A stretch of DNA of 32,141 bases from a virus. Lineage: Duplodnaviria; Caudoviricetes. Numbering within the stretch: the stretch's first letter is position 1; each line of letters opens with the position of its first letter. The position numbers and the translations under genes are program-made. The notes beneath the pieces are model-generated. The model did not search any database, was not told where the DNA came from, and was given only the letters and a program-made list of their open reading frames with translations. The stretch spans positions 1 through 32,141 of IMG/VR virus record IMGVR_UViG_3300022183_000031. The stretch is one strand, 5' to 3'. This document shows, piece after piece, positions 14,337 to 26,993 of this stretch.

Positions 14337-14368
14337 GCTTGTTTATTTAAAATAAGTACTTACATTTG
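14337..14368 (+). promoter_or_regulatory. Bacteroidota-type promoter (probable early promoter 1)
   Basis: GCTTGTTTAT at 14337 and the -7 box TACATTTG at 14361. The same 24-nt offset occurs at 17367 and 22380. Confidence 0.8.
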
Positions 14369-16941: not shown

Positions 16942-16974
16942 AGGCGTTTTAACTAGGTTTAAGACGCTTTTTTT
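16942..16974 (+). terminator. Intrinsic terminator
   Basis: GCGTTTTAA...TTAAGACGC followed by T7. Confidence 0.8.
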
Positions 16975-17084
16975 GTTTTCCTATATATTTGTATCATTAT
17001 TTACATTGCGTTCGCTTATACATGCTTAAAATGCGTTTAAGAGCTATTGCGTTGTTAAGATAAAACTAAATACAAGAAAGGTGT

Positions 17085-17362
17085 TGCAAAAAATGCAGTA
17101 ACTGGCAAAAAGTGAAATTCATAAATGCTTGATATTCAATTAGTATGCAAAAATGCAAAAAAATAACTAACATTTAATGTAGTACTTAAAATCAATTCTA
17201 AAAAAAAAATAATGGAAATACGTTTTTTTTATTTTAGAGTGTGTTCTCTATAAGGCTATTATAGGAGGCTATTTTTGCATAATTTTTGCCTAAGCTAGTG
17301 TTTGTAAGGGTTGTAGCAGGTTTTTTTGTTTTTCACTAAAAATATTTTATGTTTTTTTTGCC
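17085..17362. other. Putative replication origin with convergent GCAAAAA iterons
   Basis: GCAAAAA at 17086, 17105, 17147 and 17155, and its inverse TTTTTGC at 17272, 17283 and 17355, flank an A-tract/T-tract centre. This is the largest non-coding gap and lies upstream of the primase-helicase. Confidence 0.6.
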
Positions 17363-17366
17363 TTTA

Positions 17367-17398
17367 GCTTGTTTAATTGAATATTATATTTATATTTG
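17367..17398 (+). promoter_or_regulatory. Bacteroidota-type promoter of the replication operon
   Basis: GCTTGTTTAA at 17367 and TATATTTG at 17391. Confidence 0.8.
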
Positions 17399-17402
17399 CA
17401 AA

Positions 17403-17532
17403 GTAGTTCTACTAATAATACGGATAGGTTAGTAATAAAGAACAAAAAAATTATTTAAAGCCTTTAGGGTTTGATGGTGCCGTATCACTTGAAAACTTTA
17501 AAGGCTTTGTTATTTTTAAAACATTATACGGA
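17403..17532 (+). ncRNA. Structured leader / candidate antisense riboregulator (two hairpins with complementary loops)
   Basis: Hairpin 17457-17508 has the apical loop CCGTAT (17480-17485). ATACGG occurs at 17418-17423 and 17526-17531. Confidence 0.6.
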
Positions 17533-18057
17533 ATGAATAAACAAGAATTCTTTAAAGACATACCCGGTTATGAAGGGTATTATCAAGTAAGTAATCTAGG
17601 CAGTGTCAAAAGCCTAAGTAGAAGTATAAAACTTTCGAATGGAAGGTATAGAGTGCTAAAAGAAAAGATTTTAAAACCAACCTTAAACTCTACGGGTTAT
17701 TTATTAGTTATCCTTTATAAAGATGGTAAACAAAAAGCATATAAAATACATCAGTTGTTAGCTATGGCGTTTTTAGGACATATTCCATGCGGGCATAAAT
17801 TAATAGTTGATCACATCAACAACAACCCCTTAGACAACCGAGTAGAGAATTTACAAATAGTAACAACTAGAAAGAATTGTTCAAAAGACAAAAAAGGTTA
17901 TTCAAGTGAGTACGTTGGTGTATCGTGGAATACAAAAGATAAAAAATGGCGTTCGGCAATTTCAATAAACGGAAAAGACAAATATTTAGGTAGTTTTGAA
18001 TGTGAAATTGAGGCTAGTGAAGCGTATCAACAAGAAAAAAATAAATTAAAAACATGA
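17533..18057 (+). CDS. NUMOD4-HNH-AP2 homing endonuclease
   Basis: NUMOD4 (FKDIPGYEGYYQVSNLGSVKS), HNH (VDHINNNPLDNRVENLQ) and AP2-like tail (YVGVSW...KWRSAISINGK.KYLGSF..E.EAS.AY). Confidence 0.92.
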   Translation: MNKQEFFKDIPGYEGYYQVSNLGSVKSLSRSIKLSNGRYRVLKEKILKPTLNSTGYLLVILYKDGKQKAYKIHQLLAMAFLGHIPCGHKLIVDHINNNPLDNRVENLQIVTTRKNCSKDKKGYSSEYVGVSWNTKDKKWRSAISINGKDKYLGSFECEIEASEAYQQEKNKLKT

Positions 18058-20459
18058 GAATTTCGATCTATAAAAATATAAAATCAGTATCACCTCTAAA
18101 AGATACTTCAGCGATTAAAGTGTTAGAAGAAATAAAAAGTGTTAAATACAAAAAGCAGATAGCACAAATTCGAGGAGCAGAAGATAAAGAAACTAAAAAC
18201 TATTTAAAGTCAAGGTTGCCTTATGTTACTTTTGCTGGAACTTTTACAAGCCGTTCAAATGCAAATCTTAGAAAGCATAGCGGTCTTGCTTGTTTAGATT
18301 TTGATAATGTACAAGACGTTGACAATTTAAAAGAAAATATCAACAACGATAAACATACTTTTGCATCTTTCATTTCACCAAGTGGTGAGGGTTTAAAAGT
18401 TTTAATTAAAATTCCTTTAGTAGACAACAATGATGACTACCAAGACTACTACGTTGAGTTAACAAAATATTATAACCAATACCACGAACTAGATTCGTCT
18501 ACCAAAGACATTGCTAGAGCTTGTTACTTATCGCATGATGAGGATCTTTTTATCAATACAGAAAGCGAGTTATTTACGCAAAAGTTTTATAGACCTTTAC
18601 CGATAGAAACTAAGATAATTAATATCCCAATAACTGATGTAAATGAGGTTGCAGAAAGGCTAGAAAAGTGGTTTACAAAAAGATGGACATCAACAAACAG
18701 AAATACTAATTTGCATGCCTATGCAAGGCAAATGAATGCTTTCGGTGTGGATAAGTCCATTTGTGAACAATATCTTTTTAGATATGCCCAAAATGATTTT
18801 AAAGAGCAAGAAATACAGAAACTAATTGATTCGGCGTATCGCTATACTGCTGAATTTAATACAAGGTTTTTTGAGGACACAAAAAAAGTTAAACAGATAA
18901 AAAACATAGCTATTGCAGGTGAATCGATTGAGAAGTTAAAAGACAAAATAACTGATATTGATTTTAGTAAAGTTCAAGAAGAATTCGAACAGCATAAGCA
19001 AGAATTGAAATTAGACGAATTTTGGTTTTACACGGAGAAAGACCAAATAAAATTGGCTACTTATCGATTTTTGCAATACTTAGAGCATCAAAATATATTC
19101 AAATTTTATCCTGACAAAAATAGTGGTACGTTTTTATTTGTTAAAAATGATAAGAATTTTATAAGCATTTTTGAGGAGTCCAAGATAAAGGATTTTGTTT
19201 TAGCAGATTTAAGAGAAAGAGGTAAAATAGATGCGTTTGAGTTAATGGCAAATTCAACGAATTTATTTCAGCAAAACTATCTTTCTATGGTTAGCACAAT
19301 AGATGTAGATTTTAATAAAGATACTGCTGAAACGAGCTACATTTACTATCAAAATGGGGTTGTCAAAACAACTAAAGATAATATTGAGTTACTAGATTAT
19401 AAAGATATTGATAGTTTAGTTTGGAAAAATCAAGTTATTAAAAGAGATATTAAATTAAATAACGAGAGCGACGGTGTTTTTAAATCCTTCATTTGGAAGG
19501 TATCGGGTGAGGATAAAGATAGATACTACACGCTTAAGTCTGTTATTGGCTATCTTATGCATTCGTATCAGAATGAAGCGAAACCAAAGGCGATTATATT
19601 TAACGATGAGATGATTAGTGAGGACGTGCCAAACGGTGGTTCTGGAAAAGGATTAATACATAAGGCGATTGGTCATATTAAAAACGTATGCGTAGAAGAT
19701 GGTAAGAAGTTCGATGCTAAAGGTCAGTTTGCCTACCAGAAAGTCGAAAAAGACACTCAAATTTTCTTAATGGATGACGTGCCTAAGCATTTTAACTTTG
19801 AGAGTCTATTCAGTATTATAACCGAAGGAATGACTATCGAAAAGAAAGGACAACACGCATTTCAGATACCTTTTAAAGATTCGCCAAAAATTTCTATTAC
19901 AACAAATTACACCGTACAAGGTGAGGGAGCAAGTCATGAGAGGAGAGTTTTTGAGGTTGAGATTGCGAATTACTTTAATGAAAATCACACCCCAGAAAAA
20001 GAATTTGGACATCTTTTCTTTGTAAATTGGGATGAGAATGAGTGGCAAAAGTTCGATAACTTTATGACTAGATGCGTTCAGTATTTCTTAAAAAATGGGT
20101 TGGTTGAATCTAATAAAGTAAACCTAGAATTTAGGAAATTTAAGGATGATATGGGCGCAGAATTTATTGAGTTTATGGAATCAAAAAACTTTAATGGTGA
20201 AGCAATAAATAGAAAAGAATTTAGAAACGAATTCAATAGAGAATATCCAAGAGTCGCACAATGGAATACACCACAGAAATTTAATAAAAAGGTAAAGGAA
20301 TATTGCTCTTTTTACAATATGCGTATTGAGGAGGCTAAATACAATGGAGTGGTTTGTTTTTACATTTACGGTGCGAATACTTCTAACAGCGATGTAGCAG
20401 TAGAGGATGAGGATATTTGGGATGAGTTAGAAAGAAAAACGAGTTCAGAATGGAATTAA
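18054..20459 (+). CDS. Primase-helicase (VirE_N/BT4734-like N-terminus, PriCT-like domain, P-loop helicase)
   Basis: LPYVTFAGTF, HSGLACLDFD, SPSGEGLKV and DIARACYLSHD motifs; NRNTNLH; Walker A GGSGKG; FLMDD. Confidence 0.88.
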   Translation: MRISIYKNIKSVSPLKDTSAIKVLEEIKSVKYKKQIAQIRGAEDKETKNYLKSRLPYVTFAGTFTSRSNANLRKHSGLACLDFDNVQDVDNLKENINNDKHTFASFISPSGEGLKVLIKIPLVDNNDDYQDYYVELTKYYNQYHELDSSTKDIARACYLSHDEDLFINTESELFTQKFYRPLPIETKIINIPITDVNEVAERLEKWFTKRWTSTNRNTNLHAYARQMNAFGVDKSICEQYLFRYAQNDFKEQEIQKLIDSAYRYTAEFNTRFFEDTKKVKQIKNIAIAGESIEKLKDKITDIDFSKVQEEFEQHKQELKLDEFWFYTEKDQIKLATYRFLQYLEHQNIFKFYPDKNSGTFLFVKNDKNFISIFEESKIKDFVLADLRERGKIDAFELMANSTNLFQQNYLSMVSTIDVDFNKDTAETSYIYYQNGVVKTTKDNIELLDYKDIDSLVWKNQVIKRDIKLNNESDGVFKSFIWKVSGEDKDRYYTLKSVIGYLMHSYQNEAKPKAIIFNDEMISEDVPNGGSGKGLIHKAIGHIKNVCVEDGKKFDAKGQFAYQKVEKDTQIFLMDDVPKHFNFESLFSIITEGMTIEKKGQHAFQIPFKDSPKISITTNYTVQGEGASHERRVFEVEIANYFNENHTPEKEFGHLFFVNWDENEWQKFDNFMTRCVQYFLKNGLVESNKVNLEFRKFKDDMGAEFIEFMESKNFNGEAINRKEFRNEFNREYPRVAQWNTPQKFNKKVKEYCSFYNMRIEEAKYNGVVCFYIYGANTSNSDVAVEDEDIWDELERKTSSEWN

Positions 20460-22054
20460 GACCGTATCAAAAAGAGTTATTAGACAAAATTAATAACTCG
20501 ACAGAAAAAAGAAACTGCATACAAGCGCCAACCGGTTTTGGTAAGACTGTTTTATTTACGAAGATTATAAACGACTTCGAAGGTAGAGTACTAGTTCTAG
20601 TCAACAGAACGGAGTTAGTTGAACAAACGCTATCTAAAATTGAAAAGAGCGTATTTAAAATAGTAGCTGGGGTTCGTAAAATTGAACTTCAAGACGTCAA
20701 TATTGGCATGGTAGAAACTGTCTATAATAGAATTAAGAAAAACAAAATTAATGTTAACGATTTTGATTTGATTATAACAGATGAGGTACACAATATGCAG
20801 TTTAATAAGATCTACGACGGCTATAAAGGCAAATTATTAGGTTTTACAGCTACACCTATAACAATGAATACGGAAACGTTCTTTATTGAAGATGTGAAGC
20901 ATATTAAACATATTTCATTAGAGAAATGGTACGGGCCTTTAATTTGTGGAGTAAAAATATCGGAGTTAATAGAGCAAGGGTATCTAACACCAATTAAAAA
21001 CTACGTAATACCTAATTCTAATTTAGGTAAGTTAAAGACGGATAAAAGCGGTGAGTTTAGTTCTAAATCTCAAAATGATGTATTTGATAACCAAGCCTCA
21101 ATCGAGTGTTTGTATGATAATTACGAGCATCATTGCAATGGCGAAAAAACAATGGTATTTAACTCAAACACTAAAACCAATAAAGATGCCTATGAATACT
21201 TTTTATCAAATGGAGTTAATTGTAGGAGTTATGATAGCAAGAGCCTAGATGATAGAAAAGAAATTGTCGAGTGGTTTCGGAATACGCCAGATGCGGTTTT
21301 ATTTTCGGTTGGGGTTTTTACTACCGGGTTCGATGTAGATGATGTCCAAAATATAATTCTTAATAGAGCTACTAAAAGCCTATCGCTTTATCATCAAATA
21401 GTGGGCCGTGGAGGTAGAATAACCGATAAGATATTCAAACCTTATTTTAAATTGATAGATTTAGGAGGTAACGTCGATAGATTTGGATCATGGGCGGGGG
21501 ACGTAAATTGGCATCGTAAATACAAAGAACGTGTAAAACAAATTATAGAGAATTATTTTATTTGTCCTAGTTGTCTAGAATTCGTTAAATCAAATCCATG
21601 TAGTGAGTGCGGTGAATTAAAGCCATCGATAAAGGGAGAGACAGCCAAAGAGAAAGTACATCTTGGCATTGCAGTCTCGAGAGAAAAACTACCGATCCCT
21701 ACTCCTAAAATGATGATCGATTTTGGGTTGAGAACTGGAAAAGATATAAACGAGGTAAAAAACGAGGTTGCAGATTATTTGGTTCGAATGATAGCTTATG
21801 ACGGTATGAGTTATGAGAAATATTTAAACAATGCTAAAAAAATAGAGCAAAGGATAGTTAATATAACTACTCCTATTTGGTTCGCACTTCATAGATCAAA
21901 ATTAAAAGGTAATAAGCGTAGAACTATATTAGACTTTAAAAGAAAAGTATACAAAAGAATCGAGAAATATTATGATAAAGAAAAGAGAGGATATTATACA
22001 ACAGAAAATCGTAGTGTGGTTTCGCAACAATTTCAAAGAGGATCTAATTTTTAG
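20450..22054 (+). CDS. Superfamily 2 DEAD/DEAH-box helicase with zinc ribbon
   Basis: LRPYQ, APTGFGKT, DEVH, GFTATP, TTGFDV, QIVGRGGR, CPSC...CSEC. Confidence 0.93.
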   Translation: MELRPYQKELLDKINNSTEKRNCIQAPTGFGKTVLFTKIINDFEGRVLVLVNRTELVEQTLSKIEKSVFKIVAGVRKIELQDVNIGMVETVYNRIKKNKINVNDFDLIITDEVHNMQFNKIYDGYKGKLLGFTATPITMNTETFFIEDVKHIKHISLEKWYGPLICGVKISELIEQGYLTPIKNYVIPNSNLGKLKTDKSGEFSSKSQNDVFDNQASIECLYDNYEHHCNGEKTMVFNSNTKTNKDAYEYFLSNGVNCRSYDSKSLDDRKEIVEWFRNTPDAVLFSVGVFTTGFDVDDVQNIILNRATKSLSLYHQIVGRGGRITDKIFKPYFKLIDLGGNVDRFGSWAGDVNWHRKYKERVKQIIENYFICPSCLEFVKSNPCSECGELKPSIKGETAKEKVHLGIAVSREKLPIPTPKMMIDFGLRTGKDINEVKNEVADYLVRMIAYDGMSYEKYLNNAKKIEQRIVNITTPIWFALHRSKLKGNKRRTILDFKRKVYKRIEKYYDKEKRGYYTTENRSVVSQQFQRGSNF

Positions 22055-22283
22055 CGTACCGAACGAGCGAACGAGTGGGTGGAATAAGATGATCGCTATT
22101 GGTATGTTGCCGGGTGTAAGTGATTTGATAGTTGTACAACCTGATAGAGTTATGTTCGTAGAGGTAAAAGATTATAAGGGATTGCAAAGACCGAATCAAA
22201 TTATATTCGAGCAAAAAGTAAAGGCATTGGGGTACGATTATCACTTAGTGCGTAGCTTAGATGATTTTAAACGAATTTTTTAA
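21972..22283 (+). CDS. VRR-NUC nuclease (probable Holliday junction resolvase)
   Basis: E..IQ, FSVPNE, G...GVSDL, FVEVK...G.Q...Q motifs. Confidence 0.9.
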   Translation: MIKKREDIIQQKIVVWFRNNFKEDLIFSVPNERTSGWNKMIAIGMLPGVSDLIVVQPDRVMFVEVKDYKGLQRPNQIIFEQKVKALGYDYHLVRSLDDFKRIF

Positions 22284-24533: not shown

Positions 24534-25773
24534 AATAAATGATAAGTTTAAAACATTATTTGAGCAACCCAAAGACGTACGTTACTACGTTATTGTTGGA
24601 GGCAGGGGTTCTGGCAAATCGTTCGGCGTTGGTACGTGGGCCTGCTTAAAAACGTTTGAAAAAAATTGTCGAATATTATATACCCGTTATACTTTAACAT
24701 CTGCACACATATCAATTATTCCAGAATTTAATGAGAAGATAGAAATACTTAATGCAGATTCTAAATTTCATATAACAAAATCGGAGATAATAAATAAAGA
24801 TACTTCAAGTGATATTTTATTTAAAGGAATTAAAACCTCAAGTGGTAACCAAACAGCAAATCTAAAATCTTTGCAGGGGGTATCTGTTTGGATATTAGAC
24901 GAGGCCGAGGAGTTGGAAGATGAGAAAACCTTTGATAAAATAGACTTATCAATACGATCAAAAGATTCCCAAAACATTGTAATATTAATACTTAACCCAA
25001 CACTTAAAGAGCATTGGATATATCAAAGATTCTTTAATGACAAAGGAGTAGATGATGGATTTAACGGAGTAGTAGATAACGTTTGTTATATTCATACGAC
25101 CTACCTAGATAATTTAGATAACCTATCCGACAGCTTTTTAAATAATGTTGAAAATATTAAATTGAAAGATCCCGATAAGTACAACCATGAGATACTAGGA
25201 GGTTGGTTAGAACATTTAGATGGTGTTTTATTTGTTAAAAAAGAACTAAACTATTATAAAGGTGATTTAAAAGACTACGAAGCAAGCGCAGGGTTTGTCG
25301 ATATTGCAGACACGGGAGAGGATTACCATTCTGTTCCAATAGGAAAGATAATAAATGATAAAATTTACATTGACGATGTTTTATTTACTAAGCAAGGCAC
25401 GGAGTATAATGTAGAATTAACTGCTGAGATAGTAAACAAACATAAATTAGATATATTAAGAATAGAGAGCAATATGGGCGGTTCGATGTACCAACAATTA
25501 TTGCAACCTTTATTAAATAATGCGACTCAAGTACAACCTATCAGGGCAAAGACTAAAAAACACACTAGAATAACTACTATGGCAGGCTTTATTAAGTCCT
25601 TTTGTGTGTTTAGATCAGATTACGAGCATGGAAGCGACTATGACTTATTTATGCGCAATTTAACGCAATATTTGAAAGATGGAACGAGTAAACACGACGA
25701 CGCACCAGATAGTTTGGAGGGATTATGTAAATTATTTAGAGTATATTACCCACACATTTGGGATAATGTTTAA
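24526..25773 (+). CDS. terL: Terminase large subunit (PBSX-like)
   Basis: Walker A GGRGSGKS, Walker B WILDEAEE, LNP motif, and nuclease motif HDDAPDSL. Confidence 0.95.
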   Translation: MIEINDKFKTLFEQPKDVRYYVIVGGRGSGKSFGVGTWACLKTFEKNCRILYTRYTLTSAHISIIPEFNEKIEILNADSKFHITKSEIINKDTSSDILFKGIKTSSGNQTANLKSLQGVSVWILDEAEELEDEKTFDKIDLSIRSKDSQNIVILILNPTLKEHWIYQRFFNDKGVDDGFNGVVDNVCYIHTTYLDNLDNLSDSFLNNVENIKLKDPDKYNHEILGGWLEHLDGVLFVKKELNYYKGDLKDYEASAGFVDIADTGEDYHSVPIGKIINDKIYIDDVLFTKQGTEYNVELTAEIVNKHKLDILRIESNMGGSMYQQLLQPLLNNATQVQPIRAKTKKHTRITTMAGFIKSFCVFRSDYEHGSDYDLFMRNLTQYLKDGTSKHDDAPDSLEGLCKLFRVYYPHIWDNV

Positions 25774-26993
25774 AAGTGAATTATCTCTTTCAACTCATCA
25801 TCAGTGTAAAGTCCTAGATCTTTTAGCTTTGCCATTGCATTAGCCTTCTTTTCCAAGATTTCTGATTTCTCTTTATCGCCTTGTTGCAATAGCTTAATGT
25901 GGCTAAAATCTCTCTCGAGCCATTCGCCTTTTTTAGTAAGTCCGAATATTTCTGCATATCTATTTGCTATCTCTTGACCTTGAGGTATAACAGTACTTTG
26001 GTATGCTTGGAATAGGCCCTCCTCTAAGTTGTTAAATGTAGAGGCCTTTTCTTTGCTAAATAGATTATCGTTTAGCCCAAAGTGGTCAATAATGCGCTTA
26101 AAATTGCTTTCAACCTCCTCAAACAACATTAAATCCTTTGTAGGGAATGACATCGATTGCCACTCTAAGGAAGCGTTCGACATAATCACTTGCATTTGCT
26201 TATTGTCTATCCCGTAATCTTTTTGATATTGCTTCTCTAATCGCTCTCTTTCATTCTTAGTTAACCCGATAGAGTTTTCAGAGTTGCTGGCTTTATTTGA
26301 TAATATACCCAACGCGCCTCTTTTGTTCATAATCACGTTTCTAAATTGATAAGCTGATCTAATATTACTTATCTCCATGTATAACGGTCTTAAAGGACTT
26401 TCACCTTTTATACCGTTTTTTACAGCGTTAACTTTTGTGTGATTAATACAATTAGTTTCTATTTTTTCGATAGAGCTACTACCATTTTGTAGTTCGTAGT
26501 ATTCGATAATATCTTCAATTTTGGATTGCTTATAAGATTTACCGGTTAATTGAATACCTATCTCCGAGGGATTTAAGTTAGTTAACCCGTCCGGTATCTC
26601 TTGGTTATCAAAGGCTTTAAGCATATATTCGTAATTATTACCGTAAATACTTAAATTAGTTACGGCTTGAATTATATGTTGGTTACCCTTCATTAATGGA
26701 TTTGGATTCTCTAGCAAATTAATAACGTCGCTATTTTTAACCTCTTGGCTTTCGCCGTTAACTAACTTGTAATGCCTCCAAGTCCCACTAGCTTGTAAAT
26801 GTGCTAATCTATTAATAACGGCGTAAACCTCGGCAGTTGTCATGTAGATATTAAAAGCGTTCCAAGTATCTGGATTTAAAAATTCGGGTTGACCGCTTAA
26901 GATATAGTTGTTACTAGGTATCTTTGGTGTATTATAATAATCGTTACCTCGGTTAAATAGGTTAAAAAAATCTTTGAACGGTTTAAATTCCAT
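25770..26993 (-). CDS. Portal protein (HK97-family), on the opposite strand
   Basis: 407 aa with LLENPNPLM, GNNY, GESPL, GALGIL and TFNNLEE motifs. Located between TerL and the protease gene. Confidence 0.9.
   Translation of the reverse strand: MEFKPFKDFFNLFNRGNDYYNTPKIPSNNYILSGQPEFLNPDTWNAFNIYMTTAEVYAVINRLAHLQASGTWRHYKLVNGESQEVKNSDVINLLENPNPLMKGNQHIIQAVTNLSIYGNNYEYMLKAFDNQEIPDGLTNLNPSEIGIQLTGKSYKQSKIEDIIEYYELQNGSSSIEKIETNCINHTKVNAVKNGIKGESPLRPLYMEISNIRSAYQFRNVIMNKRGALGILSNKASNSENSIGLTKNERERLEKQYQKDYGIDNKQMQVIMSNASLEWQSMSFPTKDLMLFEEVESNFKRIIDHFGLNDNLFSKEKASTFNNLEEGLFQAYQSTVIPQGQEIANRYAEIFGLTKKGEWLERDFSHIKLLQQGDKEKSEILEKKANAMAKLKDLGLYTDDELKEIIHF

Follow-up and report, generated by a model that had tools for sequence, protein, structure and literature searches.

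In the phage DNA studied here, a leader separates a Bacteroidota-type promoter from an HNH–primase/helicase–helicase operon. On strong comparative support from homologous sequences this leader is a real RNA element, and likely a so far uncatalogued RNA switch that turns replication genes on and off. Its core is a two-hairpin kissing-loop/terminator leader, because a third site at the start codon is optional (5/60 primase-anchored elements). A preliminary description had presented it as a three-site riboregulator; the element has proved real, and it is the third site that many relatives do without. The window, by which we mean the whole stretch of DNA analyzed (32,141 nucleotides), is the 32.1-kb record of a Bacteroidota-type phage with a completeness rating of 100%, and contains tail, head, lysis, and replication genes.

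Leader architecture and operon context

Transcription of the leader is assigned to a Bacteroidota sigma-A-type promoter, TTG-N19-TATATTTG (17369..17398, plus strand), recognized from its sequence, including what we take to be its TTG element, and from the similar box that heads homologous elements. Such a box is placed at −12 to −5 relative to +1 in PMC9723704; because the box ends at 17398, the predicted +1 is at ∼17403, and hairpin 1 would therefore be the 5′ end of the transcript. The A/T-rich spacer upstream (17086..17361, no strand assigned) was delimited from the positions of convergent GYAAAA (left) and TTTTRC (right) motifs and includes the inverted repeats I3, I6, and I11. The convergent order is the same in 36/43 homologous loci, and we infer that the spacer is a candidate replication origin. 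A 35-nt stretch just 3′ of the upstream terminator (16968-17002) is matched by other high-depth short contigs from DNA sequencing runs and may be a repeated element common to other genomes. Promoter boxes of the form TAnnTTTG at 14361, 14997, and 22404, possibly an early-promoter class, have a common downstream motif, YAYAAACGAAA or near it, that is absent from the leader's promoter.

The leader is predicted to fold into two hairpins, and all of its features lie on the plus strand. Hairpin 1 (17406..17443; 11 pairs, about −6.0 kcal/mol) holds site a, ATACGG, in its loop (17418..17423). Hairpin 2 (17455..17509) combines a long terminator-like stem with a 4-bp apical stem and presents site a′, CCGTAT (17480..17485), the complement of both site a and the third site, ATACGG at −7 to −2 of the AUG (17526..17531). 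An interrupted U-tract (17506..17517), with a run of three, then GTTA, then a run of five, is a predicted leaky termination point; the stem is long but the tract is broken up, and a strict terminator scan did not call it. The stretches that make up the hairpins, loops, and third site of the preliminary description were all confirmed at their given coordinates (ten stretches checked). The fold with both hairpins has an energy of −31.8 kcal/mol (z = −3.0), and 2/200 shuffles are as stable. Predicted unpaired probabilities are 0.62-1.0 for site a, 0.99-1.0 for a′, and 0.36-0.91 for the third site, and both loops are open in the fully folded RNA. A competing antiterminator helix is absent from the predicted folds; nesting of a:a′ or a′:third, if forced, costs 14-20 kcal/mol. 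The trio of a 6-mer, its reverse complement, and the same 6-mer, with at least three G+C, arises once when the leader is dinucleotide-shuffled 3000 times. At each of its two targets a′ is complementary over exactly 6 bp, the shortest class in a family that ranges from 6 to 12 bp, and the duplexes amount to −7.7 and −7.5 kcal/mol with flanks and −5.7 for the core. Because a 6-bp pairing is weak by itself, the case for pairing rests on homologues. Across hairpin 2, 35 codons (17428-17532) can be read without a stop in the HNH frame; this open stretch has no ATG, GTG, or TTG start and is probably due to chance.

The first gene behind the leader encodes, by ORF and domain scan, a NUMOD4-HNH-AP2 endonuclease (17533..18057, plus strand). 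Its stop is overlapped by the start of a primase/helicase gene identified in the same way (BT4734-like N, PriCT_1, DUF5906; 18054..20459, plus strand), and SF2 helicase and VRR-NUC nuclease genes (20450..22283, plus strand) belong to the same operon as the primase. Unlike the window, most homologous leaders have the primase gene directly behind them, and most have no nuclease gene there; the HNH gene of the window was likely inserted later and thereby acquired the start site belonging to the leader. The HNH N-terminus MNKQEFFKDI (17533-17570) resembles the start MKVSFFKDI of the primase at the sister locus L178 (L178:268-300), at the DNA level too, a likeness between sequences that suggests insertion via microhomology at the primase start. 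A scan of 21 first genes behind leaders of the family found four NUMOD4 nucleases, two BT4734-type primases, one Prim-Pol, two DUF6291, one Lin1244_N, one SNF2, one methylase-helicase, and nine genes without a family; DUF6291 and Lin1244_N we take to be initiator-like. It follows from this survey that the leader goes with replication modules. Control of the HNH, primase, and helicase genes, as first proposed, is thus too narrow a role, since the family precedes many unrelated replication genes and HNH genes. Elsewhere in the window, the portal gene (25770-26993) lies on the minus strand, opposite to all neighboring packaging/head genes, and converges on the terminase gene.

Conservation of the kissing pair and of the start-codon site

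Primase relatives collected from viral and metagenome contigs gave 159 loci with 88 distinct upstream regions, and none were found in the bacterial genome collection. A detector that relies on nothing but a promoter matrix, trained with clear cases, and a terminator-like hairpin found the element in 59/88 upstream regions; it missed the true elements L178, L232, L033, and L037. Among 49 non-redundant elements (<85% identity), the a:a′ loop-loop duplex reaches a score of at least 15 in 48, against 17% of 2352 non-cognate a/a′ pairs, and the cognate partner is top-ranked in 38/49. The sole miss, L004, comes from a wrong promoter pick, and its true pair is present. These 49 elements carry 47 different codes of 6-12 bp, and the stems of the code-bearing hairpin loops covary. 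Cultured Flavobacterium phages have the element before their replication operons, with the pair GTGGAACG/CGTTCCAC in mumin and snusmum, GTGAGACG/CGTCTCAC in lillamy, and GTGAGAAG/CTTCTCAC in morran, so that the changes between codes are two-sided (compensatory). As judged from these comparisons, the a:a′ pairing is conserved. Phage mumin6-1 has a second copy with a different code before its NUMOD4 nuclease gene; with codes this diverse, the copies at two-copy loci would differ by chance, and such differences were not counted as evidence, nor were the ∼700 estimated matches to the exact three-6-mer pattern in viral contigs, which are too unspecific. Code sites changed at 11% versus 8.4% for hairpin-2 stems (P = 0.11, in a set biased toward one code by search design), and because they are not significantly faster than the stems, selection for new specificities is not indicated. 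Two variant leaders (L286:466-600 and L281:2356-2490) have 5′ and downstream segments that are complementary over ∼20 bp or more, which far exceeds the length of a kissing pair.

For the third site, the set was widened with patterns blind to it, giving 149 unique candidates, of which 43 were dropped by A/T-context and downstream-ORF filters; 92 were left at <90% identity. True elements lost to the filters include L308, L165, L333, L235, L202, and the second copies in L005 and L300. The start region pairs with its own a′ at a score of at least 15 in 19/92 elements and in 121/7818 non-cognate combinations, and the third-site scores are bimodal, with none at 13-14. Within the 19 elements, 55/240 non-cognate pairs reach 15 because most codes begin with AC. 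By source, the site is present in 5/60 primase-anchored, 6/15 scaffold-anchored, 8/15 code-anchored, and 0/2 named elements. Its codes fall into six classes and its scaffolds, by eye, into three: a main GC(C/T)..TGGC group, the window with L178, and L198/L025. We aligned 14 members of the main group, picked for having the third site and with the window left out; a:a′ and a′:third are each 100% paired, three pairs are changed on both sides in each, and the four one-sided third-site changes are all G.U. The homologue alignment proposed in the preliminary description thus shows, within a subfamily, coordinated change of the 6-mer at all three sites. These comparisons indicate that the third site is an optional subfamily trait within which all three sites change together, and that the three-site form is a covarying variant of the two-site element.

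The third site of the window is backed directly by one sister scaffold, L178, which has an identical CATTATACGGAATG directly before its primase gene. The hairpin-1 site of L178 is ATGCGG, with one G.U, and a compensatory G-C/A-U pair separates the apical stems of hairpin 2 in the two sequences. On the model of the main third-site group (R1), the window's scaffold scores 23 bits (E = 0.57). The G+C count at −12 to −1 is 3-5 with a third site and mostly 0-2 without one, and in the ACAACC class the a′:third helix can reach far enough to include the AUG. The sequence of site a is directly repeated at the third site, and in several members the two copies share A-rich flanks. At L235:1304-1620 the third site is followed by an apparent truncated nuclease remnant without a start codon, which suggests a deletion exactly at the former AUG. 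Five further leaders (L306, L386, L486, L447, and L360) precede genes of a single small family (N-terminus MANV or MAKV). Their spacer 3′ of hairpin 2 is 45-51 nt long, some of them carry an additional short inverted repeat, and they have no scored third site.

Elements with and without the third site also differ in their tails. A U-run of at least six is present in 1/19 elements with the third site versus 46/73 without it and, within one scaffold, in 1/17 versus 11/20 (P = 0.002). A first, cruder tail definition gave 2/11 versus 18/48 (P = 0.30, not significant); the second was chosen after the first was seen to misplace stem ends, the related sequences are not independent, and we treat the difference as supportive only. 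Shorter U-tracts with a third site are as expected if translational control replaces part of termination. In 6/92 elements (L305, L328, L336, L314, L350, and L517) a frame of 25-36+ codons begins at an AUG 0-3 nt 3′ of site a, runs through hairpin 2, and ends near or overlaps the downstream start. These elements are possibly a leader-peptide variant like P4 kil or P1 icd, in which a:a′ could block leader translation and hence be OFF. We rejected a leader peptide as the general mechanism, given that the frame occurs in those six only and not in the window.

A proposed switch and the competing readings

The reading we prefer, held with moderate confidence from sequence comparison and analogy, is that the leader would act as an RNA switch in which a:a′ kissing is the ON state and the terminator together with a′:third pairing is the OFF state. 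Since there is one a′ and two identical targets, the a:a′ and a′:third pairings are mutually exclusive, and because they exclude each other, a:a′ would free the start site in three-site members. When a′ leaves the polymerase it would be captured by the hairpin-1 loop, and the zipping of hairpin 2 would be hindered, as has been measured in guanidine-IV. Capture would also keep a′ off the start site, allowing the HNH gene to be translated and the primase by coupling. If capture fails, hairpin 2 would form and part of the transcripts would stop at the U-tract, while in read-through transcripts a′ would pair at −7 to −2 and lower initiation. In an optional step, the least certain, the released RNA of ∼110 nt with its free a′ loop would compete in trans, and the outcome would be a self-specific negative feedback on the replication genes. 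Because there is no conserved ligand pocket, folding kinetics and competition by the released RNA would be the simplest inputs to tip the balance. The earlier proposal of a kissing loop set against start-site occlusion, plus attenuation at the U-tract, appears to fit the comparative data.

Two published observations give this scheme its background. Flavobacterium initiation is described as needing no Shine-Dalgarno sequence and as lowered by pairing near the AUG (PMC6847099), and in guanidine-IV read-through is promoted when the 5′ hairpin kisses the loop of the terminator, a contact that the terminator stem counteracts as it grows (PMC11611296). The polarity, with a:a′ as ON, is borrowed from guanidine-IV, another RNA, and the 6/92 leader frames count against it. 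The trans step is the least supported part of the mechanism because the code sites change no faster than the stems. It is a tentative and on balance doubtful extension that each leader releases an RNA of ∼100 nt whose 6-12-nt loop code shuts off only transcripts of the same code, in lytic Bacteroidota phages. If true, such an RNA would be a minimal protein-free, self-addressed circuit, both a replication timer and a kin-exclusion signal, and it would amount to c4/CI logic without lysogeny, wired to a terminator or a start codon and reprogrammable via three short words.

The kissing loop might instead be OFF, or purely structural, folding or protecting the short terminated RNA or helping the terminator, in which case the leader would only dose read-through and the third site would be a second brake. 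We consider this unlikely, although it accounts for several observations: both loops are open in the fully folded RNA, no competing antiterminator helix is found given the cost of forced nesting, leader frames begin just after site a in a few elements, and T4 endonuclease genes are dosed by terminators and by hairpins that hide the RBS (PMC2988022). It is at odds with the exclusive pairings, by which a:a′ frees the start site in three-site members, and with guanidine-IV, where the complete terminator disfavors the kissing loop (PMC11611296). We give hardly any credence to a small-molecule riboswitch related to guanidine-IV. The topology is the same, two hairpins joined by a pseudoknot with the 3′ one a terminator (PMC9788692), and there are two output types on one scaffold, but the downstream genes are replication and nuclease genes. 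A role of the 6-mers as protein binding sites, for example in primase or HNH autoregulation, or of the third site as a duplication relic, with the pairing incidental, is very improbable. Such a role would suit the direct repeats with their A-rich flanks and the origin-like region that the leader adjoins; against it, a single primase family is preceded by freely changing codes (47 among 49 elements), the code ACGGTCAA stands before proteins that are unrelated to one another, differences between sites still allow G.U pairing, and the hairpin loops that hold the sites have covarying stems.

There is more to weigh in the possibility that the leader is mainly a trans-acting c4/CI-like RNA, in which released or processed hairpin 2 silences genomes of the same code and so provides immunity or superinfection exclusion; we regard it as distinctly improbable. 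Its target, anti-target, and target stand before replication genes as in P4 seqA–CI–seqC (PMC4825925). The code is freely variable, and antisense promoters are not enriched (a −7 box within 120 nt in 5/49 elements versus 7/49 in a control stretch, for this promoter type), meaning that any regulator would come from the same strand. The single site here is 6-10 nt long, whereas c4 and CI use longer or paired sites. Code change is not faster than that of the stems, and no Rfam c4 match was obtained. The lifestyle of the carriers also speaks against it. No tyrosine integrase (PF00589) or S24 repressor (PF00717) was found in the 29 carrier records searched, among them 15/15 IMG/VR records at least 90% complete, with the window's own 32.1-kb genome included; a scan of 39 ORFs of the window was also negative for integrase and repressor. 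As positive controls, two integrase-bearing phages did match the integrase model, and the integrase-bearing control Leef_1 gave a single doubtful detector hit. The blanks of model R1 in two integrase-bearing phages prove nothing, because R1 is scaffold-specific; it scored the window and the mumin phage weakly and missed mumin genome-wide. The cultured carriers are described as virulent, with no mode of replication other than the lytic one (PMC7077304). In the bacterial genome collection the pattern for the third-site scaffold, which covers one scaffold only, had 94 matches; a single one is a real element by R1, and it lies on an 8-kb contig from a metagenome-assembled genome. Prophage or lysogen immunity is thus unlikely, given the lack of integrase and repressor, the lytic cultured carriers, and the near-absence from bacterial genomes, and the RNA-based immunity raised in the preliminary description is, in the P1/P4 lysogen sense, not supported by these carriers. 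A plasmid-like or carrier state is conceivable, as is exclusion among co-infecting lytic phages.

Relation to known regulatory RNAs

Loop pairing as an ON state has a precedent in the IncI-alpha/B/K plasmids, where an intramolecular loop pairing (pseudoknot) in repZ/repA turns on the replication initiator and competes with an inhibitory pairing; the inhibitor is the separately transcribed Inc antisense RNA. We propose the same use of loop pairing as ON, with a rival inhibitory pairing, for the leader, but it has no antisense promoter enrichment and its terminator is part of the leader. For a counter-transcript like that of the plasmid antisense attenuators (pT181, IncI/B/K), the search for antisense promoters of the −7-box type showed no enrichment here. 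In P1/P7 c4 the targets are a1b1/a2b2, and in P4 kil and P1 icd the downstream target is at the translation start. P4 seqA–CI–seqC has, like the leader, a same-strand anti-target between two targets before replication genes (PMC4825925); in our set, an anti-target flanked by targets on the same transcript is found only in the subfamily (19/92). The phage leader differs from P4 CI and P1/P7 c4 in being ∼130 nt in all, with one 6-12-nt site and a simple terminator-like hairpin, and in having carriers without integrase and repressor. c4 is RF01695 (PMC2864571). The Rfam search proposed in the preliminary description gave no gathering-level match in the window and 14 loci, and the E-value matches were chance-level only.

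In guanidine-IV (mepA) and Gd4v, of similar size, the loop of a 5′ hairpin likewise kisses the loop of a terminator hairpin (PMC11611296, PMC9788692), and the leader, too, has its two hairpins linked by a pseudoknot, with a terminator-like hairpin on the 3′ side. Guanidine-IV also uses its kissing loop as an antiterminator without overlapping helices (PMC11611296), which for the leader is proposed by analogy. The phage leader differs in its replication genes downstream, in the third, start-codon site of the subfamily, and in a freely changing code without conserved ligand-binding nucleotides; conserved pseudoknot nucleotides of the guanidine-IV kind are absent from the 49 elements.

The leaders of T4-type homing-endonuclease genes offer a parallel in that RNA structure hides their start site and nuclease expression is limited by terminators (PMC2988022), but theirs are local hairpins relieved by a late promoter, whereas here the proposed occluder is a distant loop. 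DNAVirus_8377, an unnamed 105-nt candidate with a predicted terminator, is described as mostly freshwater, with Bacteroidetes hosts, and as lying upstream of HNH_3/NUMOD4/AP2 genes (PMC10690425). By its table description, it may be the same scaffold as the leader; in the main text of that paper the identifier does not occur, and "pseudoknot" is used only for gp32. We found no description of the leader motif in the accessible text of PMC2864571 and PMC5737381, and full-text searches, with most subscription papers outside their reach, returned no kissing-loop leader of Bacteroidota phages.

The timing of replication genes in Bacteroidota phages is little known, and the leader carriers show no repressor. 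If primases, helicases, and initiator-like genes are indeed gated by a ligand-free kissing loop, with termination and start-site occlusion as two interchangeable outputs, this widespread leader would represent a regulatory module of a new kind. For a phylum that does not use Shine-Dalgarno sequences, the third site would illustrate a way in which initiation could be blocked by an RNA. The idea is directly testable, as the same hosts are infected by cultured Flavobacterium phages whose codes differ, and if the codes are orthogonal, they would supply simple riboregulator parts for Bacteroidota. Set beside the known systems, the leader is a member of neither of its two closest counterparts: it is like guanidine-IV in topology and like P4 seqA–CI–seqC in logic.
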